From Bacteroidales bacterium (GTDB lineage: Bacteria > Bacteroidota > Bacteroidia > Bacteroidales > UBA3663): a DNA stretch of 64,000 bases. Numbering within the stretch: position 1 is the stretch's first letter; each line of letters starts with the position of its first letter. The position numbers were made by a program, and so were the translations under genes. Under the pieces are notes generated by a model. The model saw only the letters and a list, made by a program, of their open reading frames with translations. It was not told the origin of the DNA and searched no databases. Positions 5,074 through 61,549 of the stretch are shown in pieces. The DNA lies in assembly GCA_004557315.1 (NCBI GenBank), contig SFEH01000005.1, positions 3,816 to 67,815 on the forward strand, read 5' to 3'.

Positions 5074-6252
5074 TTATAATCCTAACTTTTTCTTCAATGC
5101 CTTTGGAAGTGCGTCCTTGTGAACCATGACGTAGATGGTCTTGGCGCGAACGAAGCTCTCGGACATGTTGAGATAGCCGCCGTTGCTGTTGCGCTCTGTG
5201 CCCCAAGAGTTCTTGGTGATGTAGTATTTTGTGCCGTTCTGATCCTTCACGATGCCTGTGATGTGCATGAGGTGGTCGTCGGTGGTGACGAATGACTCAT
5301 AGCCCTGCTGACGGATCTCCTGGGTGACGTTGATCTCTGGACATGGAGCTTCGAACTTGAATGCTTCTTCCTTAAGCTGCTGTGGAGTCATGTTCTCGAA
5401 ACGGGCGCGATCGGAGCCTGAATAATCCTCTACCTTCTCGAGCTGTGGATTGATGGCAACGCCATTCTTGTGGCTGAATCCCTTCTCGCTCACATCGCCA
5501 TCCCAGCATACCGAATAGCCATTGTCGATGGCATGGTCGATGACTTCCATCATCTCATCGAGTGGCACGTTATACTGCTGGAAGCCCTCCCAGTTGTCAT
5601 GAACCTCCACCGCGAATGGCTGGTAGAATGGCTTATGGCTGAAGCTTGTGATCTCGACATAGTCGTCCATGTTGAGTCCAAGGCTCTCGGCAAATGTCTT
5701 TGCTGTGTATTCCTTGCCATTGTATTTGAATGTCTCTGGCAGCGGACCTAGATAGATATCGAACACACTGTTGAGAAGCTTGTAATATTCTGGCGAACGC
5801 TTCTTGAGCTTGACCGCTGTCTGTGCGATGGCATTGACATACTGGTTGAACTCTCCGTGGTTGTGATGGTCGGAGTTGTAGTTGATGCCTGTATAGACCT
5901 CCTCTGGCACGATGCCCACCTGCCTATAGGCGTTCATCCATGTGTGAGAAAGACTGCCCTGTCCGACGTTTCCTCGTCCACGACGCAGGTAATTGTCTTC
6001 TGCCTGATTGAAGTACTTCTGGCGCACGATAAACATCTCTGAAAGGTCGTATTCGCCCTTGCCCATGCGGAGCAGCTCTGTCTCCATGAACGATGTTGTG
6101 GCGAAGCACCAGCACGTGCCTGTCGAGGCCTGGTTCTTGACTGGTGTTGTCTTGATGGATTTGACTGTGGTGAACTGATAGCCCGATTCCTGGGCATTCA
6201 TTCCTGCTGCCCCTGCCATGAGGAGTGCAGTAAGCAATAAAGTTTTTTTCAT
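5074..6252 (-). CDS. C1 family cysteine peptidase (PepC/bleomycin-hydrolase-like, with signal peptide)
   Basis: MKKTLLLTALLMAGAAGMNAQ signal. Catalytic Cys block QASTGTCWCFATTSFME. ATG at 6252 chosen over the longer track ORF. Confidence 0.88.
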   Translation of the reverse strand: MKKTLLLTALLMAGAAGMNAQESGYQFTTVKSIKTTPVKNQASTGTCWCFATTSFMETELLRMGKGEYDLSEMFIVRQKYFNQAEDNYLRRGRGNVGQGSLSHTWMNAYRQVGIVPEEVYTGINYNSDHHNHGEFNQYVNAIAQTAVKLKKRSPEYYKLLNSVFDIYLGPLPETFKYNGKEYTAKTFAESLGLNMDDYVEITSFSHKPFYQPFAVEVHDNWEGFQQYNVPLDEMMEVIDHAIDNGYSVCWDGDVSEKGFSHKNGVAINPQLEKVEDYSGSDRARFENMTPQQLKEEAFKFEAPCPEINVTQEIRQQGYESFVTTDDHLMHITGIVKDQNGTKYYITKNSWGTERNSNGGYLNMSESFVRAKTIYVMVHKDALPKALKKKLGL

Positions 6253-6291
6253 TGTGTTGTATTTTAGGATATTATATTCTTGTTTGATCTG

Positions 6292-6299
6292 CAAATTTA
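6292..6299 (-). promoter_or_regulatory. -7 box TAAATTTG (minus strand) for the C1 peptidase gene
   Basis: Reverse complement of caaattta. Lies 40 nt upstream of the ATG at 6252. Confidence 0.5.
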
Positions 6300-6414
6300 G
6301 AGTTTTTTGATCAATATGCAACAATTATCGACTAATATTTGAATTCTTCCATGTTATTTACTCCTTTTCTGCATATTTTTCCATTTTTAATAAATAATAT
6401 TTGAGAAAAATCAT

Positions 6415-6422
6415 TATTTTTG
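6415..6422 (+). promoter_or_regulatory. -7 box TATTTTTG for the GT2 gene
   Basis: TAnnTTTG match 33 nt upstream of the ATG at 6455. Confidence 0.5.
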
Positions 6423-6454
6423 CATCTGCTTATCCTTTAATAATATCTTTCAAT

Positions 6455-7483
6455 ATGCGCGAGGTCATCTCTGTCATTATTCCTGCCTATAATTCTGAAA
6501 GTACGCTCGAATCCTGTGTTGCGAGTGTGCTCGATCAGACATATCGTGAGACGGAGATCGTCATAGTAGATGATGGATCGGTCGATGGCACACTGAAGAT
6601 GGGAAATCGATTGTCCTCTATTTATAATAATGTCAGAGTGGAGAGCATCAAGCACGCTGGCCCATCTGCTGCCCGCAATGCTGGGTTACGATTGGCGCGA
6701 GGAAGATACATTGCATTTGTTGATAGTGACGATAGGATCCATCCTGAATACCTTGCGACACTTCACTCTTTGATGTTGGAACACGGGGCTGATATCTCGG
6801 CAGTCACATATCAGATGGTGGCCGATAACAAGCATTCTGCTTCAAACACGCTTTCTGCTTCAAATAAGCCTTCTGCCTACAAGCAGCTTTGTGCGAATGA
6901 TTCGAAGGCAGATGTCAGGGTTTATTCGTCGGCAGAGGCTGTTGCAGACTTGCTTTATCAGAAGCATCTTGACTCTTCACAGTGCTGCAAGCTGTTTAGA
7001 CGGAAGCTTATTGAGGGACACTATTTCCCTGAAGATTGCCGAGTATATGAGGACTTGCTCTTCGTCTATCAAGCGTTCTGTAGGAGCGAGAAAATTGTTT
7101 GGACTGACAAACAGATGTACTACTATCACAAGACAGCCGATGGACAGATGGATAGCGTTTCGCCTTGCGTCACTGATGCCTTCGAGGTCATGGAGCGTAT
7201 CCGAAAGGACTTGTCAAGCCGCTACCCTACTCTATCTCATGCCATCGACAATCGCACAATCAGCGTGTCGTTCAATATCCTTAAGCTGATGGCTGTTTCA
7301 CATGAAACACGTCACGACGAGGGCATCGAACATCGTTGCTGGGACAATATTCGCTCATTGCGTTTTGCAAATTTCTTTGATCCAAACGTGAGGATTAAAA
7401 ACAAGGTTGGTGTCCTCCTCTCCCTTTTCGGATGTCGCTTCACAATGTCGGTTTTCTCGATAGTTGCCTGTTCTCGCAGATGA
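6455..7483 (+). CDS. Family 2 glycosyltransferase
   Basis: VISVIIPAYNSESTLESCVASVLDQTY..EIVIVDDGSVDGT and the FVDSDD DxD motif. Confidence 0.88.
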   Translation: MREVISVIIPAYNSESTLESCVASVLDQTYRETEIVIVDDGSVDGTLKMGNRLSSIYNNVRVESIKHAGPSAARNAGLRLARGRYIAFVDSDDRIHPEYLATLHSLMLEHGADISAVTYQMVADNKHSASNTLSASNKPSAYKQLCANDSKADVRVYSSAEAVADLLYQKHLDSSQCCKLFRRKLIEGHYFPEDCRVYEDLLFVYQAFCRSEKIVWTDKQMYYYHKTADGQMDSVSPCVTDAFEVMERIRKDLSSRYPTLSHAIDNRTISVSFNILKLMAVSHETRHDEGIEHRCWDNIRSLRFANFFDPNVRIKNKVGVLLSLFGCRFTMSVFSIVACSRR

Positions 7484-7728
7484 GCAGAAGCGAGACAATT
7501 ATTTCGATTACTATCATTGCTGCAGCTACGATATGAGGTGGATAGATAAGTCCGACACAAAGGGATGACAATCGGGATTACGACAGACAGCACTATGTAT
7601 GATTTGTTTCATCGTGCAGTCGAGTTTCAGTTCTTTTAAGTGTTCCGTAATTTTTGATTTGTGAAATATTTCTCCTATAATTGGTGCCTGTTTCACGTGG
7701 AACAATGATATATCCCTCTATATATTCA

Positions 7729-7783
7729 GAATCGTTCAAGAATCGTTCAAGAATCGTTCAAGAATCGTTTAAGAATCGTTTAA
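7729..7783. repeat. Tandem repeat, 11-bp unit x5 (gaatcgttcaa x3, gaatcgtttaa x2)
   Basis: Read directly; the units abut with no spacer. It sits just downstream (minus sense) of the tRNA-Ser terminator. Confidence 0.95.
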
Positions 7784-7822
7784 GAAAAGAAAAAGGCCGA
7801 AGTCGTTTAAGCTTCAGCCTTT
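7784..7822 (-). terminator. Rho-independent terminator of tRNA-Ser
   Basis: On the minus strand, aaaggctgaag / cttcggccttt form an 11-bp stem with one G-U, followed by ttcttttc. The wobble pairs only on the minus-strand RNA. Confidence 0.7.
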
Positions 7823-7845: not shown

Positions 7846-7932
7846 CGGAAAGAGGGGGATTCGAACCCCCGGTACAGTCACCCGTACACTGCATTTCGAG
7901 TGCAGCGCGTTCGACCACTCCGCCATCTTTCC
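7846..7932 (-). tRNA. tRNA-Ser (anticodon CGA), class II with long variable arm, no encoded CCA
   Basis: Minus strand: GGAAAGA-TG-GCGGAGTGGTCGAACGC-G-CTGCA CTCGAAA TGCAG-TGTACGGGTGACTGTACC-GGGGGTTCGAATCCCCC-TCTTTCC-G. Has acceptor, anticodon and T stems, a GTTCGAATC T-loop, and discriminator G. Confidence 0.93.
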
Positions 7933-18144: not shown

Positions 18145-18705
18145 ATGGATATTGGAGTAATCGCCAAACGTTATGCCAAGGCACTGTTGCTCTTTGCACA
18201 GGAGCAGAAGGCTGAAGACACTGTCTATCAGGAGGTTCTTCAGTTTATCGACTCGTATGGCAAGGTGGAGCAGTTGGCTACCGTACTGGGAAACCCTCTT
18301 TTGCCAGCTGAGCAGAAAGAGCAGGTTATCTGCCAGGCAGCATCAATCGAGGTGAGCCCAGTCTTCCGGAAATTTGCAACTTTGGTTGTCGCTCATCGTC
18401 GAGAGTCGTTCATGCTCTTCATCGCCTATAGTTATGTTTCTCTCTATCGTGAGCTGAAGCATATCAGCATTGGCAAGCTCATCACTGCCGTACCGGCAAG
18501 CGAAGCTGTTGCCAATCGTCTTGAGAAGCTCATCGAGCAGCGTTCGCAGAACTCTGTAGATGTGGTTCTTGAGACCAAGGTTGATCCAAACATTTTAGGC
18601 GGTTTCATCTTCCAGCTCGACGACTTGCGACTCGATGCAAGTGTGTCGTCGCAGTTTGAGCAGATCAAGAAGCAATTTATTGAAAAGAACAAACGAATCA
18701 TTTGA
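18145..18705 (+). CDS. atpH: F1 ATP synthase delta subunit (OSCP)
   Basis: 186 aa; RYAKALLLFA N-terminus, LGGFIFQLDDLRLDASV C-terminus. Confidence 0.9.
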   Translation: MDIGVIAKRYAKALLLFAQEQKAEDTVYQEVLQFIDSYGKVEQLATVLGNPLLPAEQKEQVICQAASIEVSPVFRKFATLVVAHRRESFMLFIAYSYVSLYRELKHISIGKLITAVPASEAVANRLEKLIEQRSQNSVDVVLETKVDPNILGGFIFQLDDLRLDASVSSQFEQIKKQFIEKNKRII

Positions 18706-18823
18706 CAATTGGACTATTTACGATTTTACAATTGCTTGACTACCAATGAGGTCTTTGTCGGATTGTAAATTGTCAAATGGTAAAATAAGAGAATTGTCAA
18801 ATTGTAAATTGTCAAATTGTAAG
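18703..18823. repeat. Imperfect palindromic element with ATTGTAAA/TTGTCAAA tandem-word arms (element E0), atpH-atpA intergenic
   Basis: The reverse complement of the left arm tgacaattggactatttacgattttacaattgcttgac aligns with gtcggattgtaaattgtcaaatggtaaaataagagaattgtca. The right arm continues as aattgtaaattgtcaaattgtaag. Confidence 0.8.
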
Positions 18824-31015: not shown

Positions 31016-33217
31016 TTACATTCTTGCCTTGATTTCGTTTCCTGCACCAGTGCCGCGATACTTGTTCTTGGTTGTGTTGAACTTATATCTCACTGTGAGC
31101 GAGACGGTCTGTGGGTCATAGATCGAACGCTCTACGCCATTGATGTGAGTCTGGCTCATGACATAGTTTCCGAGGTCAATGCGAACATTGTGATGAGCCT
31201 TTCCGAAGATGTCGTTGACGGCGAGACGCACCGAGAGGGCATCGTTTTCGAGCCATGATTTCTGGATGGCGCACGAGAGATTCCAATAGCAGTTGGCCAC
31301 TTCGGCATTTCCCCAATGGAAATCCGACAAAAACTCCGAGTTGAGTTCAAACTGCCAAGCCCCGAAGCCGTCGTCGCGTCGTGAAGGCAAGCGCCATGCG
31401 TTGTAGGCATTGACGATATACATAGGCCTGTTGTACTTCACCGTACGCTTGCCGCTCGTCTCGCGTGGGTCATCAAGGTTGAAGCTGAGCCACTGCTTCT
31501 GCAAGCCCACTGTATAGCTTGGAGTCCAGTGTCCCCAGGTGTTGGTGACATTGACAAAGGTGCCGAGGCTGTGGATAGGCTTGTCGAAATTCACCCAGTC
31601 GAACATCACTGTTCCGTCTTCACCGTAAGGGTGCGTCCAGTCGTAGATGCCGTTCTGCTGGTTCTGGTAGTTGACCGACATCGAAAGGAAGCGCCAGCGC
31701 ATGTTGATGGCAGCCTGATTGTTGATTTCGTTCTTCAGCTTCGGATTGCCTGTCGAGAGCGTGTAGCGGTTGTTGTACTCGATGTTGCTTCTCAGTAAGC
31801 GATAGTTCGGACGACGGGTCTTGACCGAATACGAGAGCGAAGCCTGCACCTCTTTGATCTGTGTGCCGAAGCTCACGGTAGGGTAGAGGTGGTCTTGTCC
31901 ACGGTTGATGTTCTGCGATGCGTCAAAGAGATTCTTGAACTCGAAATCGACGTGCTCATATCTCAAGCCGAGGTTGAGCATTCCATAGGGAGTCATAGTG
32001 CCATATTCGACAAAGACTGCATAGGTGTTCTCGTTGACTTTCGACTTGTCGTCGGCAATCTCCTTCTGGTCGATGGTGTATTCGTTGTCGCGTTTCACTA
32101 TATCGACTTCCGCACCAGCCTGCAGCTTGCCTTTGCCCAACGGATAGGAGAATACCACCTTTCCGGCATAGAGATCATTGCTCGACGTTCCCTTTGAATC
32201 GACTGTCCGATTGCCTGTCTTCGCCTTTTCTGTTGTCATGGCATGGTTCTCGTCATCGGTGTGATAATAATCGATGTTGAGGTTCATCTCCATCTTGCCT
32301 ATCTGTCCCTGATAGTAGGCATTGGTTGACCAGCTGTCAACGCCATCTTCCATAGTCAGAGTGTGCGACGAGAGCTGTTCGATCAGAGTGCGCGTACGGC
32401 TATATATATCGGCATCCATCTGATATGAAGTGCGTCCGTGCAGATTGTCATTGCGCTCGACCCTGAATCCTGCCGAATGGTTGTCGGCAATCTGCCAGTC
32501 GGCACCGAGGCTGTATTGTAAGCCTTTGTAGTGCTGGCCGAGGTCGGTCTTGCCGATCTGCTCGATATTAGCCTTGCTGAATGTGCTTTGGTTGAAGTCA
32601 GTCTTGTAATGCTCAAGACGGTGGTCGTTCAATGTCAAGCCGCCGAACAGTTCTACGCTCTTCTGTCGATAGTTGAGGTTGAGTGTGCCGTTGAGGCGGT
32701 TGTCACCGAAGCGCAATCCGTAGTAGTCGTTGGCATCAAGGCTGCCGCCAAGACCCTTTCCGCGACGTTTCACAGTCTTGATCCTCACCACGGCATTGAC
32801 CTGGGCATCATATTGAGCTCCAGGAGTGTTGATCACTTCCACCTCCTTGATTTCCTGACTCGAAAGACGCTGGAGTTCGCTGATGTCATTGACCTTCCTT
32901 CCATTGATATAATATATAGGAGAGCCCTTTCCAATCACCTCAATACTGCCATTTCGACGCATGAGCCCGGGCATACGTGCAAGAGCATCGGCTGCCGAGC
33001 CTGCGTTAGCGAGCGGAGTGCCCACCAGTCGGGTCACGAGCACGTCGCCATTCATCTTTGTCTTCTCCACTCTGGTCACCACCTCCACATTGTCGAGAGC
33101 CTGAGCCACCTTGGTCATGCTCTGTGTTGTGTCTTTTACTACTTTCAGCTTGCCATCCTGTGCAGCTGCTGTTGCAGCACTCGCAAGCATCATCATTCCA
33201 AAAATCAGCTTTTTCAT
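31016..33217 (-). CDS. Plug-containing outer-membrane beta-barrel protein (TonB-dependent-receptor-like, OMP_b-brl_3 type), paralog 1
   Basis: Signal peptide. Plug-like LARMPGLMRRNGSIEVIGKGSPIYYINGRKV...IKEVEVINTPGAQYDAQVNAVVRIKT. C-terminus KYRGTGAGNEIKARM. Paralogous to 58387-60534. Confidence 0.85.
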   Translation of the reverse strand: MKKLIFGMMMLASAATAAAQDGKLKVVKDTTQSMTKVAQALDNVEVVTRVEKTKMNGDVLVTRLVGTPLANAGSAADALARMPGLMRRNGSIEVIGKGSPIYYINGRKVNDISELQRLSSQEIKEVEVINTPGAQYDAQVNAVVRIKTVKRRGKGLGGSLDANDYYGLRFGDNRLNGTLNLNYRQKSVELFGGLTLNDHRLEHYKTDFNQSTFSKANIEQIGKTDLGQHYKGLQYSLGADWQIADNHSAGFRVERNDNLHGRTSYQMDADIYSRTRTLIEQLSSHTLTMEDGVDSWSTNAYYQGQIGKMEMNLNIDYYHTDDENHAMTTEKAKTGNRTVDSKGTSSNDLYAGKVVFSYPLGKGKLQAGAEVDIVKRDNEYTIDQKEIADDKSKVNENTYAVFVEYGTMTPYGMLNLGLRYEHVDFEFKNLFDASQNINRGQDHLYPTVSFGTQIKEVQASLSYSVKTRRPNYRLLRSNIEYNNRYTLSTGNPKLKNEINNQAAINMRWRFLSMSVNYQNQQNGIYDWTHPYGEDGTVMFDWVNFDKPIHSLGTFVNVTNTWGHWTPSYTVGLQKQWLSFNLDDPRETSGKRTVKYNRPMYIVNAYNAWRLPSRRDDGFGAWQFELNSEFLSDFHWGNAEVANCYWNLSCAIQKSWLENDALSVRLAVNDIFGKAHHNVRIDLGNYVMSQTHINGVERSIYDPQTVSLTVRYKFNTTKNKYRGTGAGNEIKARM

Positions 33218-33289: not shown

Positions 33290-33426
33290 TTATACATAAC
33301 AAAATTATGCAATACTGAGTGACAGACAACCTTCTTTTAGGTACCGAATCCAAGGTTTAGGGATGTTTGTGGTCTTTGTAGGGACGAATAACAATAGAAA
33401 ATCTTGCAAAACTCAATATGTCTGCT

Positions 33427-33452: not shown

Positions 33453-34382
33453 ATGAAGCAAATCCTTTATTCTCCTGTGTATGGCAGCATTGGTTCGATG
33501 ATTATCCTTGCCTTGCTCCAGCCTTTCGGCATTGACCAACTCGGATCCCAGCGCATACCATTCATCCTTGGTGAGTGCGCTTGTGTCTTTGTGTGCCTGT
33601 TCCTGTCGGAATGCTTTTTCCTATGGGTGTGTCCACGCCTCAGTTCAACAGGCAATGCCAAAAGGAAAGAGTCATCGAGCATCTGGCGTTTAGCCGTAGC
33701 CCTTGCACCTTCCTGCATCATCAATACGTGTCTGGTATCAGCATCTTTGCTGTGTTTCTGCGGCTGGTTTTATTTCGACGATATCTTCAATGGTTGGATC
33801 GGTCCAGAAGGTTTCACGCTTCGACCTTATCTCAATATGACTGCTCAGGTGATGTTTGTTGGTTTTTTTATCTATATCTGGGCAATCTACAGAGCGAGTA
33901 ATGTACAACTAAAGGATGAACTCAGTGAGCTACGTGCGCTCAACAAGCTGCTTGAAGAGCGTCAGGAGGCGGTGGCAACAATGAATGAAGAAAAACAGGA
34001 AGAACCTTGCCCCACAGCCGTTTGCCGCATCGAGGGCAATTACCATAACGACATTCTCGAGATTGATCCTCAGAACATTGTCTATGTCGAGTCAATGTCC
34101 AACTATGCCGACATCTGCTATATGCAGGAAGGCACGATGGAGCATAAGACAATGCGCATCACTCTCAAGCAGCTTCGCGAATCACTTTCGGAAGTCGAAT
34201 GCCTGATGTCGTGCCACCGAGCCTTCATCGTCAACCTCAATTTCGTGGTCTCAATCTCTCCGCGAGTTTCAGGTGGCTACCAGCTCGATGTCTTTGGCTG
34301 CGACAAGCAGATTCCTGTGTCGCGCACTTACATTGATGAGATTAAACAGCGAATGAAAAAAGAAGTAAAAAACAATAAATGA
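33453..34382 (+). CDS. Membrane-anchored LytTR-domain DNA-binding protein, paralog 1
   Basis: About four N-terminal TM segments, a coiled-coil linker (LKDELSELRALNKLLEERQ), and a C-terminal LytTR domain (IVYVESMSNYADICY...CHRAFIVNLNFV...IPVSRTY). No receiver domain. Confidence 0.85.
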   Translation: MKQILYSPVYGSIGSMIILALLQPFGIDQLGSQRIPFILGECACVFVCLFLSECFFLWVCPRLSSTGNAKRKESSSIWRLAVALAPSCIINTCLVSASLLCFCGWFYFDDIFNGWIGPEGFTLRPYLNMTAQVMFVGFFIYIWAIYRASNVQLKDELSELRALNKLLEERQEAVATMNEEKQEEPCPTAVCRIEGNYHNDILEIDPQNIVYVESMSNYADICYMQEGTMEHKTMRITLKQLRESLSEVECLMSCHRAFIVNLNFVVSISPRVSGGYQLDVFGCDKQIPVSRTYIDEIKQRMKKEVKNNK

Positions 34383-34390
34383 GAATAATT

Positions 34391-35185
34391 ATGGCAGAAG
34401 AAACCAAGCTTGTGGCAGTTGTCATTCCGATTTATAAATCGCACTTGTCTGATCAGGACAGAATCTCCCTAGACCAGACCTATAAGGTTCTTGCCCGATA
34501 CCCAATGATAGTGGTACATCCTGAAGGCTTGGATCTGAGCGAATTTCGACGCGACTATCCTGCCTTGCAGTACCAGTCGTTCGACAAGTCCTACTTCAGC
34601 AGTATTGTCGGCTACAACAAGCTGATGCTCGCTGAGGAGTTCTATTTGGCTTTTTCCGACTATCAATACATTCTGATCGACCAGCTCGATGTGTTTATCT
34701 TCAAGGACGAGCTTGAACAGTGGTGTCTCAAAGGCTACGACTATATTGGTGCCCCATGGATTCAGAATAAGATCGGCAGATTGCCGGTCGTCAGGCATTT
34801 CTCAAAGCTCATCGCTTATACTAAGCGACTTTTTGGCAAGAAGAGCAAGTATTACCGTTATGGCAAGGTCGGCAACGGAGGGCTGTCGCTTCGTAAGGTT
34901 CAGAGCCATATCAACGTGATCAGGACTCAGCCGGCACAGGTGCGCCTGTATGCCGAAATCAAAAACCGCCAGCATCTCTACAACGAAGATACGTTCTGGG
35001 CTATGGAGCCTATCGGATTCAAGTATCCAAGCGCCCAGGAGGCAATGCTCTTCTCCTACAACAAATACCCCGAGCAGAGCTACAAGCTCACAAAAGGCGC
35101 AACTCCCTTTGGCTGCCATGGATGGACGAAGCCCAAATACCGAAAGTTCTGGTGCACAAAGGGAGAAGTGCCAACAATGCCATGA
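34391..35185 (+). CDS. DUF5672-like protein (putative glycosyltransferase-like; family recalled from memory)
   Basis: VAVVIPIYKSHLS...YDYIGAPW. The upstream in-frame ATG at 34379 overlaps the LytTR stop (ATGA), so translational coupling is possible. Confidence 0.7.
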   Translation: MAEETKLVAVVIPIYKSHLSDQDRISLDQTYKVLARYPMIVVHPEGLDLSEFRRDYPALQYQSFDKSYFSSIVGYNKLMLAEEFYLAFSDYQYILIDQLDVFIFKDELEQWCLKGYDYIGAPWIQNKIGRLPVVRHFSKLIAYTKRLFGKKSKYYRYGKVGNGGLSLRKVQSHINVIRTQPAQVRLYAEIKNRQHLYNEDTFWAMEPIGFKYPSAQEAMLFSYNKYPEQSYKLTKGATPFGCHGWTKPKYRKFWCTKGEVPTMP

Positions 35186-35309
35186 GGTGTTAAGGTGTTA
35201 AGGCGCTGCGCTTGTTAAGATGTGAAGGTGTTCATTGCCTTTAGAAGAGGCTGTCTGCGCTGTCAAAACAACACCTTAACACCTTCACATCTTCACATCT
35301 TCACACCTT
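35186..35309. repeat. Octamer-armed palindromic element E1, wedged between two convergent stop codons
   Basis: Left arm ggtgttaaggtgttaaggcgctgcgcttgttaagatgtgaaggtgtt. Right arm aacaccttaacaccttcacatcttcacatcttcacacctt. Bounded by TGA at 35183-35185 and the complement TGA at 35310-35312. Confidence 0.9.
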
Positions 35310-37028
35310 TCACATCTCCACGTGGAACCAATCCACATCAACCCATCCGCCAGTCTTCTTGGTTGCATAGTTGAAGATAGCGAACTTACTGCCCATGAAG
35401 TGACGGCGGTAGTCGAAGATCATCTTGATGTCGCGTCCGATGTTCTTCCAGTTGGTGCCGTCGGTGCTGTAGGCAAACGAAGCGAGGTCGCGTCCGTCGT
35501 TGAAGTCAGCATGCAGCCTGAGATAGATGAGCTGCTGGGGCTTCTTGGTGTCAGGAGCCTTGGTCTTCTTTAGGTTGAGTGCAACCTCCTCAATCACTGT
35601 TTCATCGACTTTCTCCACCACCTTATTGTCGTTGAGCACCACATTCTCTTCGGTGAGCTGCAGATAGAGCTTGTTGCCACGCTTCACTACACGGAGCACG
35701 CCACTGTCGCCATTGTATGCAGCCAGACCGCAACGGTCGCCATCTTTCATGTTGGCAACATCGATGCAGACACTGCCTGTGCTCTGAGGTCCGCCAATGC
35801 GCTGAGTGATGGTGTTTGGAGCGACATTGATGTTATCGACTACGCGGGCTGTCTTAAGGCGCAAATATCCTGGGCGGTCAAGCAGACTCCATGCTTCGTC
35901 GATAGGGTTGTGGTTCCATTGCCAGTATAGCTTCAGTCCCTTGTCCTCATGATAGCCCGATTTGCGCATACGGTTGAGTGCCTGAGTTGGGAAATCAAAC
36001 TCGTCGCTGTTGATGATGCCGCGAAGCGAAGGATGCTGCTTTGTGAGGTCGTTAGGAATATGGTAGTTTTTTGGATTCAGGCAAGCCTCGGTGTCGCTTG
36101 GATTCACTCCTTCGTTCAGCTCACCGCACATTGGCCAGCCATCGACCCATGTTACTCGCATCGCACAAGGCACACGGCCTATGCCGCCACGATCCTGGAA
36201 GATGAGTGCCCACCAGTTAAGATCGCTCTGGTCATCACCTACCAGACAGCCTTGGCCTACACCACCATACACCTCGAACGGAGTTTCGAGAATGACGTGC
36301 TTCTCATATGGGCCAGTGATATTGTCGGCACGATAGCAGACCTCACGGCGAACGCGTCCAGGCACATCCCATTTCATCGAGATCATGCAGAGGTAATACT
36401 TGCCATTGTGCTTGATTACGCTGCTTCCTTCGAGCAATGCGCCTCGTTCCTCTGGATCGTCGGCACTATCGACAATCTTCTTGTTCACGCCACCTTCCTT
36501 TGGCTCAAAGTTGTTGTCGAGTTCAACCAGTGTGCAGCCTCCCGAACCAGTAAACATATAGATCTTGCCGTCTTCGTCAAAGAAGAGCGAGCCGTCGTGC
36601 ATGTGAGGCGGACGAGCCACGAGCGTCCAAGGTCCTTCAGCCCTGTCGGCCGAGAAGACAAAGCCTTTGCCAGGAGCGCCATTGGCAGTAAACCACACAT
36701 AGAACTTGCCCATGTGATAGCGGATGCTCGAAGCCCACTGACCTTGTCCATAGACAGTCTTGTTGTCGGTGAGGTTGTAGCGGTCGCCATCGTCGATGCG
36801 GTCAAACACATAGCTGATCGTCTCCCAGTTGACCATGTCCTTCGAACGCATGATAGGTCCTCCAGGCATGAGGTGCATTGTCGTACTGATCATGTAATAG
36901 GTATCGGCAACCTTGCACACGCTGATGTCAGGAACATCGGCATTAATAACTGGATTGCGGAAAGTCTCTTGCGCCTTGATGCTCATTGCAAATACCACAA
37001 CAAGGCATAACATTAAAATTTTTTTCAT
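35310..37028 (-). CDS. GH43 glycoside hydrolase with C-terminal ConA-like beta-sandwich domain
   Basis: Signal peptide. NPVINADVPDISVCKVADTYYMISTTMHLMPGGPIMRSKDMVNWE, GQWASSIRYHMGKFYVWF, LLEGSSVIKHNGKYYL. 572 aa. Confidence 0.85.
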   Translation of the reverse strand: MKKILMLCLVVVFAMSIKAQETFRNPVINADVPDISVCKVADTYYMISTTMHLMPGGPIMRSKDMVNWETISYVFDRIDDGDRYNLTDNKTVYGQGQWASSIRYHMGKFYVWFTANGAPGKGFVFSADRAEGPWTLVARPPHMHDGSLFFDEDGKIYMFTGSGGCTLVELDNNFEPKEGGVNKKIVDSADDPEERGALLEGSSVIKHNGKYYLCMISMKWDVPGRVRREVCYRADNITGPYEKHVILETPFEVYGGVGQGCLVGDDQSDLNWWALIFQDRGGIGRVPCAMRVTWVDGWPMCGELNEGVNPSDTEACLNPKNYHIPNDLTKQHPSLRGIINSDEFDFPTQALNRMRKSGYHEDKGLKLYWQWNHNPIDEAWSLLDRPGYLRLKTARVVDNINVAPNTITQRIGGPQSTGSVCIDVANMKDGDRCGLAAYNGDSGVLRVVKRGNKLYLQLTEENVVLNDNKVVEKVDETVIEEVALNLKKTKAPDTKKPQQLIYLRLHADFNDGRDLASFAYSTDGTNWKNIGRDIKMIFDYRRHFMGSKFAIFNYATKKTGGWVDVDWFHVEM

Positions 37029-37051
37029 AAAAAAAGGTAATGTATTAATAA

Positions 37052-37222
37052 TTAGGTTGTGAGGTTTTGAGGTTATGAGGTTGTGAGGTTGTGAGGTTGT
37101 GAGGTTGCAAGATTCAGTATCTATGAGGATAATTGTCTGCGCGGAGCTACCTTAAAACCTCAAAACCTTAAAACCTCAAAACCTTATAACCTTATAACCT
37201 TATAACCTTATAACCTTATAAA
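37052..37222. repeat. Octamer-armed palindromic element E2 (TGAGGTT / AACCT[CT]A words), intercistronic GH130-GH43
   Basis: Left arm is seven TGAGGTTN-type octamers (37052-37110). Right arm is about nine AACCT(C/T)A(A/T)A octamers (37148-37222), which overlap the GH130 stop at 37216-37218. Confidence 0.9.
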
Positions 37223-40392: not shown

Positions 40393-40517
40393 GAAGGCAA
40401 AAAATATGCAAAAATATGTATATGATTGGATTTCATGATGGATTGCTATTGTTGTCACCCATTCACAGCATCAATGATATTAATACCGCATCTTCTCGAC
40501 ATGCAAAACGTTTTTTT

Positions 40518-40549
40518 AAAATCGCATCGAGTTAACAGTTAACGTTAAC
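40518..40549. repeat. GTTAAC-rich repeat copy A (aaaatcgcatcgagttaacagttaacgttaac)
   Basis: 32 nt identical to copy C (40976-41007). Its last 28 nt are the inverted complement of copy B, with 1 mismatch. Confidence 0.95.
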
Positions 40550-40612
40550 ACCCTTTTTCATGGTGATGGACAGGCATGAGAAGCGGGTGATGTGCGGTTG
40601 TCGGGGAGTTAA

Positions 40613-40637
40613 TTTTTTTCCCTCGCGAGGAAAAAAA
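40613..40637. repeat. Near-perfect 25-bp palindrome T7-CCCTCGCGAGG-A7
   Basis: tttttttccctcgcgaggaaaaaaa, read directly. Lies inside the A-B segment; a second tcgcgag follows at 40643. Confidence 0.9.
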
Positions 40638-40687
40638 TCTTGTCGCGAGAAGTACCTTGAGAGGTGTTGGTTGAAGAGAGCTGGAGC

Positions 40688-40715
40688 GTTAACGTTAACT
40701 GTTAACTCAATGCGA
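40688..40715. repeat. GTTAAC-rich repeat copy B (inverted orientation)
   Basis: The reverse complement of gttaacgttaactgttaactcaatgcga is tcgcattgagttaacagttaacgttaac, against tcgcatcgag... in copy A. Confidence 0.95.
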
Positions 40716-40975
40716 ATGTGAATTACATCAAGACTCATCTTCGACAGCAAAGCACCATCGCCAGCAAAGCACCTTCAAACATCCACACCCCAACATCTTC
40801 ACTCCTTCATCTCTCAAGGTATTTCTTTTCTGTAATGCTACTAAAAATATTTCTGCTAAAATTGTTTCTGCTATATAAATATATAATAATATAATTTTAA
40901 ACTATTAATATGCGCGCGAGCGCGATATATAATGTATAAAATAACGTTAACCCTCTCGCAATCATTGAAATAAAC

Positions 40976-41007
40976 AAAATCGCATCGAGTTAACAGTTAA
41001 CGTTAAC
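40976..41007. repeat. GTTAAC-rich repeat copy C (direct with A)
   Basis: Exact 32-nt match to 40518-40549. Confidence 0.95.
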
Positions 41008-41196
41008 GCCTTTCGGGTCAGCTTGAATTATTTGATGAGAGCAGTAGTGTTCTCGCGTTTTCAGTTTATAGTTAGCGCAGCCCAAAAGAACTTTAATATC
41101 TATACCAGTTACGAACGTTTGGAACAATTGACTGTTCTCAACCTTCAGTTCTGGTTGTCAAAATTAATTTGCTGACTTTTGATTTCTATAAAGCAT

Positions 41197-41250
41197 AAAA
41201 CAATGCACCGGCTGTCTTTGCATCTGCAAGGCAGTTGGTGCATTGTTTTT
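41197..41250 (+). terminator. Strong hairpin plus U-tract in a gene-free region (orphan or bidirectional terminator)
   Basis: acaatgcaccggctg / cagttggtgcattgt form a 15-bp stem. Its two G-U pairs form only in the plus-strand RNA. Flanked by A4 upstream and T5 downstream. Confidence 0.65.
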
Positions 41251-41345
41251 CAGCAATGAAGATTTTGGTATTAAAAAAGAAATAATGTGACTTATTTCAA
41301 TTCCTCTTCTATCTGCATATATATGCAAAATATCAATACGTCATC

Positions 41346-41378
41346 AACTCGAAGGGAACTCGAAGGAAACTCGAACAA
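41346..41378. repeat. Tandem repeat, 11-bp unit x3 (aactcgaaggg, aactcgaagga, aactcgaacaa)
   Basis: Read directly. A 14-bp palindrome tgcatatatatgca lies about 30 bp upstream. Confidence 0.85.
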
Positions 41379-41481
41379 ACTTGATGTGTTTGAAGCGTGA
41401 GACTTTTGCATATATTACGTAAATCTACCAAAATAGTGATGCTCAAAATATCCAATACAAGATAGTTGCGATATGGATCCT

Positions 41482-57104: not shown

Positions 57105-58064
57105 TTAAGATTTCAGGGATTCTTTGCTATTGCGTTGGGAGCTTGCACATATAGCCTCTTTGATTGCAGCTCTGTTGGGGCGTGACAAAGGAATCTTTTT
57201 GTCTAAGCTGAACAGATTGATGAAGAAGCGGTTGTTGGCTCCTTCAAGCGACTCGACATACATGAGATTGACGAGGAAGGCACGATGGCACTGAACAATA
57301 AATGAATAATCACGCAGTTCTTCCTTCAGCTGTTTTATCGTGGAGCGCAAAGTGCGACTGCTGATTTGTTCGTTATCTATAAAATAGACATTGCTGTAAT
57401 TGCCTACCGATTCGACATAGATGATCTTGCTTGGGATGATGGTGAAGTCTTGAGACGTATTGTCGGTATGCAGAATGACAGGGCATTCTTCTTTATCCTG
57501 TTTGCCATCATGTTTATCATCATCTTCATCTGCTTCTTTTTCAACTTCTTTACCAACTTCCTCTCCATGTTCATTTTCGTCATTTTCATGCTTGCTCTCC
57601 TCTTTCCATCCATTGGCTGCATTCTGGCGTTCGCGAATCATCTTGTTGATGTCCTTGACCTCGTTTAGTTCCTTACGAATATTCCTTATCCAAATGTATA
57701 GCAGTTGAAAGGCGAAGATGATGAGCGAGACAATAAAGATGGTAGGCATGGTAATGAAGAAATAGGCTATTCCGCATACCACACCATAGGTGACACCAAA
57801 TGCAAAGGCACTAATGCACCATACAATGCTAAGGTCTCGGGCACTGTCTCTCGTCGTTCCGCTGTGGCGGAGTAGGTTGAAGCAGACAGCGATGGAGGCA
57901 GACATCAGGAATACGCCTGCCATACAACCAATAATATTCAGGTTGGAGCAGAATTCTCGTTCCATGCTCAACTTCACTTCAAAGGGCTTGAGGATCACCA
58001 GAACAAAAATCGAGCTTACAAACATGAATAGCGTGAGTTTAAGAATTCTTTTAATCTTACACAT
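57105..58064 (-). CDS. Membrane-anchored LytTR-domain DNA-binding protein, paralog 2
   Basis: Four TM segments, an acidic low-complexity linker (HENDENEHGEEVGKEVEKEADEDDDKHDGKQDKEE), and a LytTR domain (IIYVESVGNYSNVYF...CHRAFLVNLMYV...IPLSRPN). Confidence 0.85.
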   Translation of the reverse strand: MCKIKRILKLTLFMFVSSIFVLVILKPFEVKLSMEREFCSNLNIIGCMAGVFLMSASIAVCFNLLRHSGTTRDSARDLSIVWCISAFAFGVTYGVVCGIAYFFITMPTIFIVSLIIFAFQLLYIWIRNIRKELNEVKDINKMIRERQNAANGWKEESKHENDENEHGEEVGKEVEKEADEDDDKHDGKQDKEECPVILHTDNTSQDFTIIPSKIIYVESVGNYSNVYFIDNEQISSRTLRSTIKQLKEELRDYSFIVQCHRAFLVNLMYVESLEGANNRFFINLFSLDKKIPLSRPNRAAIKEAICASSQRNSKESLKS

Positions 58065-58096: not shown

Positions 58097-58104
58097 CAAA
58101 AATA
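58097..58104 (-). promoter_or_regulatory. -7 box TATTTTTG (minus strand) for LytTR paralog 2
   Basis: Reverse complement of caaaaata. Lies 33 nt upstream of the ATG at 58064. Confidence 0.5.
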
Positions 58105-58159
58105 ATGATAATTTCTGATATGTAGATAAATATGGGATAAAATGTATAGATTTGGGATG

Positions 58160-58284
58160 GAAAGATGTGAAGGTGTGAAGGTGTTAAGGCGCTGCGCTTG
58201 TGAAGATGTTCAATGTCTTCAGTAGTGTTTTGTCTTGTGTAGAGTCAATGAACACCTTAACATCTTCACACCTTCACATCTTTC
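58160..58284. repeat. Octamer-armed palindromic element E3 in the LytTR/OM-barrel divergent region
   Basis: gaaagatgtgaaggtgtgaag (58160-58180) is the exact reverse complement of cttcacaccttcacatctttc (58264-58284). The core at 58206-58274 matches 61475-61543 with 3 substitutions. Confidence 0.95.
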
Positions 58285-58340
58285 TGTCCCAAATTGGCTA
58301 ACGTCTATCCCAACCTATTGCCCGAATGAAAAGATTGCTA

Positions 58341-58386: not shown

Positions 58387-60534
58387 ATGAGAAGAATAGG
58401 TTTTTTGTTTTTGCTCCATTCGCTGTGCTTTATGGCGGTCGATGGGCAAAACGTTAACTCGACTGATTCGACAGTCTTTCTTAATGAAGTTGAGGTGCAG
58501 TCATTTGTGCCAAAGACAAAGTTGCGTGGCGACGCGATCGTGACCAAGATTCAAGGCTCGGTGCTTGAGAAATCGGGCTCGCTGCACGAGATGCTGGGCA
58601 AGGTGCCAGGGATGATGATGGAGGGTGAAGAACTCAAGGTGATCGGCAAAGGTGTGCCTGTGTTCTATGTCAATGGCCGCAAGCTATATGACACAGAGGA
58701 ACTGAAGCGCATGAGAAGCGAGGAGATCATGGAGGTGGAGGTGATCAACAACCCCGGTGCGCAGTATGACGCGACGGTGAGCGCGGTGGTCAAGATCCGC
58801 ACCCGTCGCCCACAAGGCGAGGGCTTCGGCTTTAACCTGACAGCAGGACATAGCCAGGACTTGCGCCGAGCAGATTTTGCCGACCCCTCAGCAACGATCA
58901 ACTTCAACTATCGCAACAAGGGTTTGGATGTCTTTGGCATGGTCAATCACTGGAATTCGCACACATTACAGGAAGCCACTACCGATCAGCATATCTATGC
59001 CAACGTTGGCAATCAGGTCAATGACAACTGGCAGAAGGGAAAGATAGTTACAAGCACTGCTGGCTATGGAATGAATTATGCGCTGGGTGTCAATCAGGTG
59101 ATAAGCGAAAATCACAGCATGGGCGCACGTCTTCAGATCGACCATCTGTTGAACAACGAGAGTCCGCTGACTCTCGATCAGGATATCTTTAACAATGATG
59201 TCTTCTATAAATCGCTTTTCTCGGAAACTCACACTATCTACGATCATCCAATCGGCTATAATCTCAACTCATACTACAATGGCCGATGGGGAAAGATCGG
59301 CATCGACTGGAACTTCGATTGGGGCAAGAAAGGGGCTGAAGAAAAGATGGACAGCAAGAGCGACGATGTACATTCGCTGAGCGAGGCTTCGAGCAATCTG
59401 TTTGCAACGAAGCTCGTGGTGTCGTATCCTGTGTGGAAAGGAACGGTCAATGCAGGAACGGAAATGACATGGGTGAGGCGTGACATCGATTATGTTATCA
59501 ATCAGGACTATATCTCAGATTCTCATTCCAAGACTAATGAAGACAGTTATTCCGTGTTCGTTGAGTATCTTGCCAATTTCGACAAGTATGGAACGGCAAG
59601 GATTGGTGCTCGCTATGAATGTGTGAACTTTGATTATGTCAATCTTGCAGATGCTGCTGCCAATGTGCGCGACACTCGCCGAGGCATTTACCCATCGATA
59701 TCGTATTCGGTAGGGTTTGGCAGGGTGAATCTTTCGTTGAGCTACAACACCAAGACCGTCCGCCCAAACTTCTATCGTCTGACCGATGCCACTACCTATG
59801 TGAGTCACTCGATGCTGATGCAGGGCAACTCGCAGCTGCGCAATCAGATCAACCATGAGTTGGGGCTCAATGCCCGATGGAGCTGGATCATAGCTTCAGT
59901 CAGCTACACAAAAAACAACCACATGATGACACAATGGTCTTATCCATACATTGGAGAGCAGGTGCCTGTGGAGGAGGGTGTGCAGGTCGTGAGGGTGATC
60001 AACCTCGCCAAGCCTGTAAAGACTCTTGTCAGCTTCGTCAATGCTTCGCCCACTATAGGTATCTACTCTATGAATACAACGGTGGGTTGTCAGAAGCAGT
60101 TTTTCACTGTGGAAGTGGATGACCCTCGTGAGGCTTCGGGCAAACGAACCAAGTCGTATAACGACCCTGTGCTTTTCATCAATTCCAACAATACGTTGCG
60201 ACTGCCTCACAATTGGCAAGTGGAATGTAGCTTGAATGTCAATTCAAAGGGTAATCTGCAAAACTATCGACTGATGAGGTGGAATACAGGCTTGTCCGCT
60301 GCTATTCAGAAGACTCTGCTGCGCAACAAAGCTCTCACCTTGCGGCTTTCAGCCAATGACATTCTGTATCGCACGGGACAGGATATTCTGCTTGACAGCG
60401 GCGACAACGTGATGTATCAATGCAACCGATACTCGTCGCAACGCTTGGTGTTTTCAATTCGCTATGCATTCAATCAAACCAAGAGCAAGTATAAAGGTAC
60501 CGGAGCTGGTGGGGATGCGAAGAACAGAATGTAG
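58387..60534 (+). CDS. Plug-containing outer-membrane beta-barrel protein (TonB-dependent-receptor-like), paralog 2
   Basis: LGKVPGMMMEGEELKVIGKGVPVFYVNGRKL...IMEVEVINNPGAQYDATVSAVVKIRT. C-terminus KYKGTGAGGDAKNRM. Collinear with 31016-33217. Confidence 0.85.
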   Translation: MRRIGFLFLLHSLCFMAVDGQNVNSTDSTVFLNEVEVQSFVPKTKLRGDAIVTKIQGSVLEKSGSLHEMLGKVPGMMMEGEELKVIGKGVPVFYVNGRKLYDTEELKRMRSEEIMEVEVINNPGAQYDATVSAVVKIRTRRPQGEGFGFNLTAGHSQDLRRADFADPSATINFNYRNKGLDVFGMVNHWNSHTLQEATTDQHIYANVGNQVNDNWQKGKIVTSTAGYGMNYALGVNQVISENHSMGARLQIDHLLNNESPLTLDQDIFNNDVFYKSLFSETHTIYDHPIGYNLNSYYNGRWGKIGIDWNFDWGKKGAEEKMDSKSDDVHSLSEASSNLFATKLVVSYPVWKGTVNAGTEMTWVRRDIDYVINQDYISDSHSKTNEDSYSVFVEYLANFDKYGTARIGARYECVNFDYVNLADAAANVRDTRRGIYPSISYSVGFGRVNLSLSYNTKTVRPNFYRLTDATTYVSHSMLMQGNSQLRNQINHELGLNARWSWIIASVSYTKNNHMMTQWSYPYIGEQVPVEEGVQVVRVINLAKPVKTLVSFVNASPTIGIYSMNTTVGCQKQFFTVEVDDPREASGKRTKSYNDPVLFINSNNTLRLPHNWQVECSLNVNSKGNLQNYRLMRWNTGLSAAIQKTLLRNKALTLRLSANDILYRTGQDILLDSGDNVMYQCNRYSSQRLVFSIRYAFNQTKSKYKGTGAGGDAKNRM

Positions 60535-60743
60535 TGTTGATATGCTTTGCCCTTACAGGGTGTAAACATATATAATTAGTTATTGGTAGCCATTCATCTG
60601 TCGTGAGACAAGTGGGTGGCGTTTAAAATGTTGGACAGATAATGCTATCTGTATATTGCAAAATATAAGGCTTTGCGAATTGTATTTATGCTTGGAGGTC
60701 TGAAATATGGTGCGGAAATTTGGAAGATGACATGAAAATATAA

Positions 60744-60751: not shown

Positions 60752-61054
60752 CACTGCAATAGCGCAAAAATTGTTATTGCTCAAACTATAAACAACAAAG
60801 TATCAAGATGTTGTAGATTGCTGAAAAATCATTATTGAACGTACCAAACAATCAAACATTTGTAATTGACTGATGTTTGTTTGCCCAATCTCCGCTTGAG
60901 GAGGGAGGACAGCATAAGGTACGTTCTTTGACATATTGATACAACACTTTTTCCCCTGCTTTTTGTGTTTTTATTTTTCAAGATGGAAGCTTCGCAGCGT
61001 CTGTCTTGAGGGTTATTAACCGTCTGTCAATGCGTTTTGTGTTGGCAGACATAA

Positions 61055-61432
61055 ATGTTTATAGTTATGAGATACCGTTTATTACTTACCAATACAGTGA
61101 ATGGAGAGGAAGCGGAAATCGTTGTCCCCTCGTATTTGCCACTCGAAGAGCTTAGCCATAAGATTAAGCTTGAACTTGACTTGCCATTATGCGATAACGG
61201 ATGGCATCGGTTCCAGTCGCTTGGAACTGTCTATGTTATCGACGAGCATCTTTTTGCCGAAACTGAATGGCTGACAAAGTGCAACCTCTATGTCGGCCGA
61301 TACCGCAGCAGCGAAAGAATACGTCTGAAGCACGTGTTCACAGGTATAGGTTCGGCTATTACTTATATTCAGGATGATGAGAATTTCTTCTATATCTTTA
61401 AGATCCGTGTCACTCTGGTGAAAAGGTGTTAA
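61055..61432 (+). CDS. Small protein resembling the pRiA4b ORF-3-like (PRiA4_ORF3) domain (from memory); alternative start 61067
   Basis: YRLLLTNTVNGEEAEIVVPSYLPLEELSHKIKLELDLPLCDNGWHRF... fits the family pattern (YxFKVxL...IWRRIxVP...LxxLHxxIQ...GWxxxHLHxF) only loosely. The last four codons and the stop lie inside element E4. Confidence 0.55.
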   Translation: MFIVMRYRLLLTNTVNGEEAEIVVPSYLPLEELSHKIKLELDLPLCDNGWHRFQSLGTVYVIDEHLFAETEWLTKCNLYVGRYRSSERIRLKHVFTGIGSAITYIQDDENFFYIFKIRVTLVKRC

Positions 61433-61549
61433 GGCGCTTCGCTTGTGAAGGTGTTAAGGTGTTAAGGTGTGAAGATGTTCAATGTCTTCAGTAGTCTGTT
61501 GACTTGTGTAGAGTCAATGAACACCTTAACATCTTCACACCTTAACAAC
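61420..61549. repeat. Octamer-armed palindromic element E4 between convergent genes
   Basis: aaaaggtgttaaggcgcttcgcttgtgaaggtgttaaggtgttaaggtgtgaag...aacaccttaacatcttcacaccttaac. Relative to E3 it carries a 24-nt octamer-repeat insertion in the left arm. Confidence 0.95.

Follow-up and report, generated by a model that had tools for sequence, protein, structure and literature searches.

The window, by which we mean the whole 64,000-nt stretch of DNA that was analysed, contains at positions 58160-58284 a hairpin-forming intergenic element, hereafter the type copy, whose neighbours are a LytTR-domain gene on the minus strand (57105-58064) and an OMP_b-brl_3 gene on the plus strand (58387-60534). 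An earlier note had placed this element between the -7 boxes of the LytTR and outer-membrane barrel genes, and had described its outer 21-nt arms as exact reverse complements composed of tandem 8-mers; each of these points holds. The two divergent -7 boxes are found at 58097 (minus strand, LytTR) and 58341 (plus strand, OMP_b-brl_3), with the element upstream of both. Read directly, GAAAGATGTGAAGGTGTGAAG at 58160-58180 is the exact reverse complement of 58264-58284. The arms are built from the octamer TGTKAAGR on the left and YCTTMACA on the right, and TRF reports a period of 8 in both of them. Past a 9-nt insert the left arm continues with a further unit, TGTGAAGA, at 58199-206, and the family-specific part of the type copy runs from GAAAGATG through CATCTTTC.

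The octamers are far too frequent in this DNA to be a matter of chance: a two-unit pattern with up to three mismatches allowed is found 20 times in the window, where 0.6 would be expected, and no shuffle reached that count. As RNA, the type copy has a predicted fold of -84 kcal/mol, compared with -34 +/- 4 kcal/mol for its shuffles (z = -12.4). Since a TGA or a TAA occurs in each octamer and the units repeat every 8 nt, three consecutive units stop all three reading frames, and they do so from either side.

An inverted-repeat search stretches the arms to 40 nt (58150-58189 and 58255-58294, 93% complementary, with 65 nt between them), and we considered and rejected this as the true extent of the element. 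The outer 10-18 nt are conserved TGGGAT boxes of the host spacer, which are mirrored on the two sides and so give the inverted repeat its 40-nt look. This flank is kept in two related loci (numbered L here and below), L133 and L164, though the interior of the element differs there, and the spacer of a paralogous LytTR/OMP pair, also in the window, contains TAGGGAT and TAGGGAC 21 nt apart and no hairpin. The modules of the type copy and the other elements of the window are collected in Table 1.

Table 1. Hairpin elements of the window and modules of the type copy (positions in the 64,000-nt window).
Feature	Position	Strand	Basis or remark
Type copy of the hairpin repeat	58160..58284	+	Exact 21-nt terminal inverted repeat, fold, nhmmer profile 84 bits
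Left-arm tandem octamers: TGTGAAGG (58166-73), TGTGAAGG (58174-81), TGTTAAGG (58182-89)	58166..58189	+	
Right-arm tandem octamers: CCTTAACA (58255-62), TCTTCACA (58263-70), CCTTCACA (58271-78)	58255..58278	+	
GC-rich small palindrome module AAGGCGCTGCGCTT, 9-nt bulge in left arm	58186..58199	+	In 3/3 homologous window copies
Asymmetric loop/core	58207..58254	+	Motif GTGTAGAGTCAA at 58237-58248; 12-17-nt internal repeats
Host flank, two TGGGAT boxes 20 nt apart	58126..58158	+	Outside the element; mirrored at 58283-58313
Homologous copy between convergent DUF5672 and GH43 (572 aa) genes	35182..35315	+	nhmmer 76.7 bits; edges from the empty-site allele
Homologous copy between 125-aa ORF and GH43 (347 aa), form-A allele	61417..61548	+	Alignment, nhmmer profile
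Analogue with octamers GGTTGTGA / AACCTTAW	37051..37221	.	Same architecture, not a sequence homologue
Weak analogue with AATTGTMA units, atpH-atpA spacer	18700..18822	.	Architecture only

Copies in the window and in related genomes

Five related copies had been counted in the window, of which three, the type copy and those at 35182-35315 and 61417-61548, prove to be homologous, while the elements at 37051 and 18700 drop out of the family. The family profile, built with nhmmer from 12 copies, finds exactly three matches in the window, all on the plus strand, and gives no match to either 37051-37221 or 18700-18822. Aligned to one another, the three homologous copies have in common the octamer, a 14-nt GC-rich palindrome, AAGGCGCTKCGCTT, that breaks the left arm as a bulge in each of them, and an asymmetric loop. 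In the alignment of these three and in that of the 12 copies the loop begins with GTTCAWKGYC and ends with GTGTAGnGTCAAnnAACA; its conserved columns in the 12-copy alignment are TAGnGTCAA..AACA, and it holds 2 to 4 units depending on the copy. Copies within one contig have so far had the same orientation, both in the window (3/3) and in L120 (3/3), which for these two contigs amounts to about p = 0.06.

The two remaining elements are not alike. The one at 37051-37221 has a strong predicted fold (-71.9 kcal/mol, z = -11.3) on octamers of its own. The one at 18700-18822 forms a weak hairpin (z = -3.3) and has a single SNP over ten strains, so that it behaves unlike the other elements and is probably a different kind of feature.

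Beyond the window, a metagenome scan with the GC-rich module as bait returned 17 stretches, 13 of them true copies, and blastn and nhmmer located further copies adjoining the ones that the bait had recovered. The 13 copies represent about nine independent loci outside the window, on Prevotella contigs from the gut metagenomes of pigs and humans. Source records give the name Prevotella sp. to homologues of the flanking proteins. The locus of the window is also present in the MAG GCA_036309205.1 (contig JAXJUG010000149.1). Metagenome contigs that carry the OMP gene stop inside the right arm of the element, as is expected at a multicopy repeat. Genomes of gut Prevotella and Segatella are hard to assemble, and this hairpin family, in whose arms contigs end, is one concrete cause.

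The host range appears to be narrow. Three sister species, with syntenic GH43 proteins that are 91%, 84% and 80% identical, yielded neither a family copy nor a period-8 array in about 155 kb of sequence; two of them (L153 and L154-157) have classical hairpin-plus-T-run terminators at the equivalent GH43 3′ end. Scans of viral contigs and BLAST against plasmids and phages likewise returned no match to the element. With sister species lacking copies and the viral, plasmid and phage collections empty, the family is best regarded as chromosomal and confined to a narrow lineage. A degenerate two-unit pattern was also run against a genome collection of 596 Gb, where the matches listed were scattered among Bacteroidota and others and did not include the source genome; as estimated from the length of the pattern, roughly 70 single matches per 596 Gb are to be expected by chance. 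Other Prevotellaceae have paired TGTTAAGG arrays with AT-rich centres; a kinship of these centres with the window at 40.4-41.5 kb was examined and rejected, the octamers alone being what matches.

Variation among strains and the ends of neighbouring genes

The site of the type copy is filled in all seven versions recovered (L119, L133, L135, L137, L141, L142 and L164), with no empty allele among them down to a LytTR identity of 81%. Two of these versions, L133 and L164, have a shorter interior that is about 70% identical, set in a flanking spacer that is nearly identical. At the site past the stop codon of the 347-aa GH43 gene, ten strains in which this protein is 100% identical all have the element and fall into two alleles, which differ in their loops, in their distal flanks and in whether the GC-rich module is present in one arm or in both. 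Within one allele the number of octamers varies from strain to strain, independently in the two arms. Thus the arms quickly gain and lose octamers, as replication slippage would give. The element changes even where two strains have identical proteins on either side of it, and could therefore be useful for typing strains at a fine scale.

The second allele, form B (L122, L129 and L135), has the GC-rich palindrome in both arms, inverted. Form-B strains are without the segment 60803-61420 of the window, which carries the 125-aa ORF, and this 620-bp indel adjoins the copy at 61417-61548. In L120 and L125 a 169-aa gene is enclosed by a pair of direct copies; in L130 the gene is missing and the element is single. 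The sequence that the window shares with L161 breaks off at 37053, right on the border of the GGTTGTGA analogue. Copies are thus located at deletion and rearrangement junctions, and the element marks breaks of synteny as well as the gain and loss of small genes. The picture that we draw from these alleles is one of birth, fast slippage, recombination between copies and decay. One decayed copy was seen.

One locus, that of the copy at 35182, was recovered in an empty state, in L161. The two sequences are close relatives here, the 572-aa GH43 protein being 98% identical and the flanking DNA 94-96% identical. At this site L161 reads CACGTGGAG, then TTTTAA, then GGCATCG, and in the window a 134-nt element replaces those 6 nt. 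In the empty allele the convergent genes overlap at TTAA, and the TTTTAA consists of their two overlapping stop codons; in the filled allele the element provides the stops of both genes (35183-35185 and, on the minus strand, 35310-35312), keeping the C-terminus VPTMP of the DUF5672 protein and changing the end of the GH43 protein from HVEF to HVEM. No target-site duplication is present at 35182/35315 in this single pair of an empty and a filled site, whose direction may be gain or precise loss. The empty site resembles a single octamer (TTTTAAGG compared with TGTTAAGG). To land on two overlapping stops and rebuild both gene ends without a duplication hints at a mobility that does not depend on a DDE transposase, and elements of this kind are barely described in the phylum.

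This locus is not an isolated case. The stop codons of the DUF5672, 572-aa GH43, 125-aa ORF, GH130 and atpH genes all lie inside the first unit of the hairpin that adjoins them, the TAA of the 125-aa ORF (61430-61432) being in the first unit of the copy at 61417-61548, while the stop of the 347-aa GH43 gene is 4 nt from the last unit of that same copy. Two of the three homologous copies in the window occupy the entire gap between convergent genes, and other copies are found 3-25 nt upstream of start codons. The element lands at or on stop codons and provides new ones.

Nature of the repeat and its rivals

Taken together, the 58160-58284 element is probably a lineage-specific, modular, non-coding, hairpin-forming dispersed DNA repeat of the REPIN/BOX/MITE kind, and a selfish one. 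The earlier suggestion of a REP/BOX/MITE-like dispersed family is strengthened by the copies at other loci, by the contig breaks inside the element and by the filled and empty pair; what defines such a family, homologous copies at unlinked loci with presence and absence among relatives, is what we find. The modules would be inverted TGTKAAGR arrays that make up the stem, one or two GC-rich palindromes, and an asymmetric loop with the motif GTGTAGnGTCAA. Judging from the L161 comparison, the repeat may be copied as one discrete block of about 130 nt into further intergenic sites, leaving no duplication, or, if the pair is read in the other direction, be lost just as cleanly.

Mobility would then be supplied in trans, by an enzyme whose substrate is the folded single strand. 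The ends of the element are fuzzy and fade into degenerate units in all copies, and this, together with the hairpin itself and the missing duplication, favours such an enzyme over a DDE transposase. The inverted palindromes of form B, the conserved loop motif and the uniform orientation of copies favour it as well. The best candidate for the mobiliser, put forward tentatively, is a Bacteroidetes-specific class of REP-associated tyrosine transposases (RAYTs), for which, as a class that is uncharacterised, the hairpin repeat is in turn a candidate substrate. The window is free of transposase, integrase and HUH genes, and no RAYT-like ORF was found in 1.2 Mb of related loci with a motif regular expression or with phmmer, for which the query was an approximate E. 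coli RayT sequence. RAYT subclass 2.6 is composed mostly of Bacteroidetes members and has at its flanks "atypical secondary structures", further copies of which occur elsewhere in the genome; its REPs are reported without the GTAG foot (PMC6006769).

Any effects on neighbouring genes would be by-products of the repeat, which may place a hairpin in the RNA of leaders or 3′ ends, put stops in every frame and, at the LytTR/OMP divergent promoter, add spacing. Its main importance would be as a driver of strain variation and of broken assemblies.

REPINs (PMC3116915, PMC6006769) are similar to the element in being extragenic hairpins of 100-200 nt with two inverted palindromes around a spacer, multicopy and restricted to a single lineage, inserted without target-site duplication and often placed between convergent genes. 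The stem of a REPIN, however, is unique sequence, whereas that of our element is mostly an 8-nt tandem array of variable number. An inverted pair of REP-like palindromes is present in the form-B alleles, with AAGGCGCTTCGCTT in each arm, and the type copy has one. Insertion without duplication agrees with the one empty and filled pair, L161 and the window. The cognate single-copy RAYT gene that REPINs have, with the repeats on its flanks, was seen neither in the window nor in the 1.2 Mb of related loci. The GT[AG]G expected at the 5′ foot of the stem is missing, GTAG occurring solely in the loop motif; as the REPs of subclass 2.6 also have none, the missing foot is no argument against that subclass.

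BOX elements of Streptococcus pneumoniae have the structure boxA-boxB(n)-boxC, with modules of about 45-60 nt and no known transposase. They resemble our element in being modular and intergenic, in having variable internal tandem modules and a stable fold, and in being useful for strain typing; they differ in that the variable modules of our element are 8 nt long and themselves form the stem, and in their unrelated sequence and different phylum. The Correia or NEMIS elements of Neisseria are abundant intergenic inverted repeats of 100-150 nt that are co-transcribed with their neighbours and can alter gene ends and expression. Unlike ours, they have defined termini and a TA duplication, and are not known to have tandem-unit arms.

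Nearer to the host is a MITE-like, nearly palindromic repeat of about 159 bp in Segatella copri, found by SPLASH, whose target is often of an "additional palindromic nature" (10.1101/2024.01.18.576133). It shares with our element the same or a close host group, a nearly palindromic form, many variable copies and no evident target-site duplication. It was considered as the same repeat and rejected, since it belongs to a different sequence family and its anchor CTCCTAGCCCAGGGCAACACCCTGGGT does not occur in the window; nor do the octamers occur in the accessible part of the supplements of that preprint. PINSR, a 188-bp high-copy intergenic repeat of Prevotella intermedia and P. nigrescens (PMC4755523), is likewise specific to one Prevotella lineage, and it too was rejected as identical, being without terminal inverted repeats and stated not to be MITE-like (PMC4755523), and unrelated in sequence to our element. 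The 7-nt TAACTGA arrays of Beggiatoaceae, Cyanobacteria and some Bacteroidetes (PMC4679880) are intergenic, have a unit longer than 6 nt and differ in copy number between relatives, but in contrast to our element they are one-sided, mostly upstream of start codons, and have neither a shared loop or core nor a hairpin partner. We found no published description of a TGTKAAGR hairpin family, the S. copri repeat being the nearest, and a dispersed repeat of this form, with a hairpin stem made of tandem octamers in variable number, therefore appears to be new.

Among the other explanations, the one that survives best, and which we still consider unlikely, is a classical MITE, that is, an internally deleted insertion sequence (IS) whose DDE transposase bound the octamers as subterminal sites. 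Terminal inverted repeats, small size and an intergenic setting all suit a MITE. In L130, moreover, a truncated DDE_Tnp_1 remnant is bracketed by inverted TGTCATTA arrays and a 37-nt inverted repeat, which implies that IS ends and octamer arrays can adjoin in this lineage; the same arrangement, however, can equally be read as an IS that was inserted into the loop of a hairpin element. A MITE is expected to have a target-site duplication flanking defined terminal inverted repeats, and what is seen is a single empty and filled pair (35182/35315) with no duplication, degenerate termini and no copy with sharp ends. No IS with TGTKAAGR ends was found in 1.2 Mb.

A broader reading, which we regard as improbable at present, is that Bacteroidales harbour a general class of mobile or self-expanding DNA that has gone undescribed, made up of hairpins with stems of 7-8-nt tandem units, and that an enzyme which recognises hairpins moves them. 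Units that share the hairpin architecture include TGTKAAGR, GGTTGTGA, TGTCATTA and GGAGAGT. The mobiliser of such a class could again be the Bacteroidetes RAYT subclass 2.6, and its targets would be palindromic gene ends, such as overlapping stops or terminators, which would thereby be converted into an all-frame stop plus a hairpin. If true, this would make the class a portable gene-end module that also seeds the cassette-like gain and loss of small genes.

A third possibility is that nothing has moved, and that a terminator or mRNA-stabilising hairpin has grown in place by slippage and template switching, with gene conversion responsible for the similarity between loci. Two of the three copies in the window do fill convergent gaps, canonical terminators stand at the corresponding end of GH43 in two of the three sister species, and hairpins of other tandem units (at 37051 and in L153), as well as paired inverted arrays in other Bacteroidales, are what growth in place would give. 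An intrinsic terminator, though, requires a GC-rich stem followed by a T-run, as in those at 41197-41249 of the window and in L153 and L154, and no copy is followed by one: the sequence 3′ of the hairpins is instead CTGTCCCAAA (58285), CAACTATC (61546) and CTCCACG (35316). The type copy lies on the upstream side of the two divergent promoters and others shortly precede start codons, so the earlier view that a simple terminator does not account for the family stands. Growth in place also fails to explain a non-repetitive loop of about 60 nt that is common to unlinked loci, and the empty allele has no precursor hairpin, its genes simply overlapping. We judge it to be decidedly improbable as an origin for the dispersed hairpin repeat.

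The earlier note had also offered a structured RNA family, and that the hairpin is the functional product of a small RNA or cis-regulatory RNA is very unlikely. In its favour are the very stable predicted folds, the better folding of the G/T-rich strand in most copies and, at the type copy, a TAnnTTTG box 5 nt away from the hairpin foot. The arms, however, do not evolve as paired RNA. A consensus fold of 12 copies has 11 pairs that are nearly all invariant, without compensatory change (covariation term +0.42). A mirrored order of octamer variants between the two arms was tried and rejected: the order is not mirrored in 10 of 13 copies, and in a permutation test shuffled orders fold equally well or better than the real one, again in 10/13. 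T.C and G.A oppositions are common in the arms, and the stem exists because six of the eight positions of the unit never vary. The advantage of the G/T-rich strand, which arises because arm mismatches are often G.T, was likewise rejected as evidence for RNA, being largely compositional and inconsistent among copies.

At gathering thresholds, Rfam recognises a tRNA alone in the whole window, and a permissive search adds only miRNA-precursor models, that is, generic long hairpins, at 20-42 bits where the thresholds are 100-211. Inward-facing -7 boxes, as a dedicated promoter would have, occur at 3 of 22 copy flanks against 3.1 expected, which is background, and copies are found in transcribed and untranscribed contexts alike. 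For annotation, the hairpin is best masked as a repeat, avoiding calls of small RNAs, terminators or short ORFs.

The least probable explanation is an attC-like site of a tyrosine recombinase that marks small gene cassettes outside an integron: the bulge is asymmetric, the unit GTTAAGG / CCTTAAC agrees at 6/7 positions with the attC core, GTTRRRY / RYYYAAC, and both the 169-aa gene between direct copies and the 620-bp ORF-bearing segment are present or absent between strains, but the copies are dispersed and not arrayed as cassettes near an intI, the window has no integrase, tandem multi-unit arms are not a known feature of attC, the inserted block at 35182 is the element alone without a gene, and homologous recombination between copies accounts for the indels.

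Gene-bearing indels beside copies of the element

In two of the related contigs, two direct copies of the element, the dispersed hairpin repeat with TGTKAAGR octamer arms, bracket a gene for a 169-aa product (L120 1597-2404 and L125 8914-9705), whereas a third contig carries one copy of the element without this gene (L130 5269-5389). The presence or absence of the gene between these contigs is a gain or loss of the cassette type. The C-terminus of the 169-aa product is rich in Gly and Ser.

Within the window, a segment of about 620 bp (60803-61420) is missing in the strains with form B (L122, L133, L135-137 and L142), the other allele of the hairpin copy at 61417-61548, for which the window carries form A. 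The segment contains a 125-aa ORF, for which no match was found in Pfam. This indel adjoins the hairpin copy, and at its far junction, near 60803-60815, lies a single octamer-like remnant, ACATCTTG.

Hairpins and arrays built from other units

The window also holds a large analogue hairpin, not homologous to the TGTKAAGR family, and a gene-free stretch of 1.1 kb (40393-41481) with three copies of AAATCGCATCGAGTTAACAGTTAACGTTAAC, whose parts are listed in the table.

Repeat features of the analogue hairpin and the gene-free stretch of the window
Feature	Position	Details
Large hairpin	37051-37221	octamer arms GGTTGTGA / AACCTTAW; -72 kcal/mol
AAATCGCATCGAGTTAACAGTTAACGTTAAC copies	40519-40549, 40977-41008	direct
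AAATCGCATCGAGTTAACAGTTAACGTTAAC copy	40688-40722	inverted
Decayed octamer-like arms	40648-40687, 40770-40826	
AT-rich stretch	about 40905-40935	centre GCGCGC

When L161 is compared with the window, homology stops at the edge of the analogue hairpin (breakpoint 37053), where L161 has another upstream gene with a promoter of its own. The arms of this hairpin include five identical units of CCTTATAA, and the GH130 stop codon lies within it. The gene-free stretch has no match in Rfam.

In a sister species (L153 1797-1894), a hairpin of -50.6 kcal/mol separates GH43 from the gene for an MFS transporter, and its arms are tandem heptamers, GGAGAGT and GGAGTGA; it shares the architecture of the octamer element, with a unit that is unrelated. 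Among the other Prevotellaceae MAGs, L022 (80-340) and L020, L061 and L114 (each at about 6200-6600) show two related patterns: runs of differing 6-8-nt tandem arrays with GCTGGCGCGCCAGC palindromes between them, and AT-rich centres of about 200 nt bounded by inverted TGTTAAGG arrays. Compared with one another, these loci match in their octamers only.

At L130 3388-4399, and at the corresponding locus of L121, the ORF of a truncated DDE_Tnp_1 transposase (3750-4301) has 37-nt inverted repeats on both sides, and outside these stand arrays of another octamer, TGTCATTA, in inverted orientation. Two readings fit this arrangement: an IS that was inserted into the loop of a further octamer hairpin, or an IS that itself ends in octamer arrays.

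Boxes and small repeats in the window

LytTR regulators bind operators composed of direct repeats. The type copy, the hairpin between the divergent LytTR and OMP_b-brl_3 genes, is flanked on either side by a pair of TGGGAT boxes, 20-21 nt apart and in mirrored arrangement (58126-58158 and 58283-58313). A second, paralogous divergent pair of these genes occupies 31016-33217 (minus strand) and 33453-34382 (plus strand); its spacer has no hairpin but contains TAGGGAT and TAGGGAC at a spacing of 21 nt (33358-33385). Because the spacing at both places agrees with that of LytTR operators, the boxes may be autoregulatory sites.

At 58147-58154, TAGATTTG matches the Bacteroidetes -7 promoter box and faces into the type-copy hairpin, whose foot is 5 nt away; over the set of copies, boxes of this kind occur at a frequency no higher than elsewhere in intergenic DNA.

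Directly 3′ of the OMP gene stop codon lies CACCCTGTAAGGGCAAAGC (60545-60575, minus strand), which is similar to the end motif GCCCTGWAAGGGCAAAAGC of a Segatella copri palindromic repeat distinct from the element (SPLASH preprint, 10.1101/2024.01.18.576133); the remainder of that repeat was not found in the window. Elsewhere, about 60 nt from a tRNA gene (7846-7932), the 11-nt unit AGAATCGTTCA occurs in 5.4 repeats with 97% identity (7728-7786).
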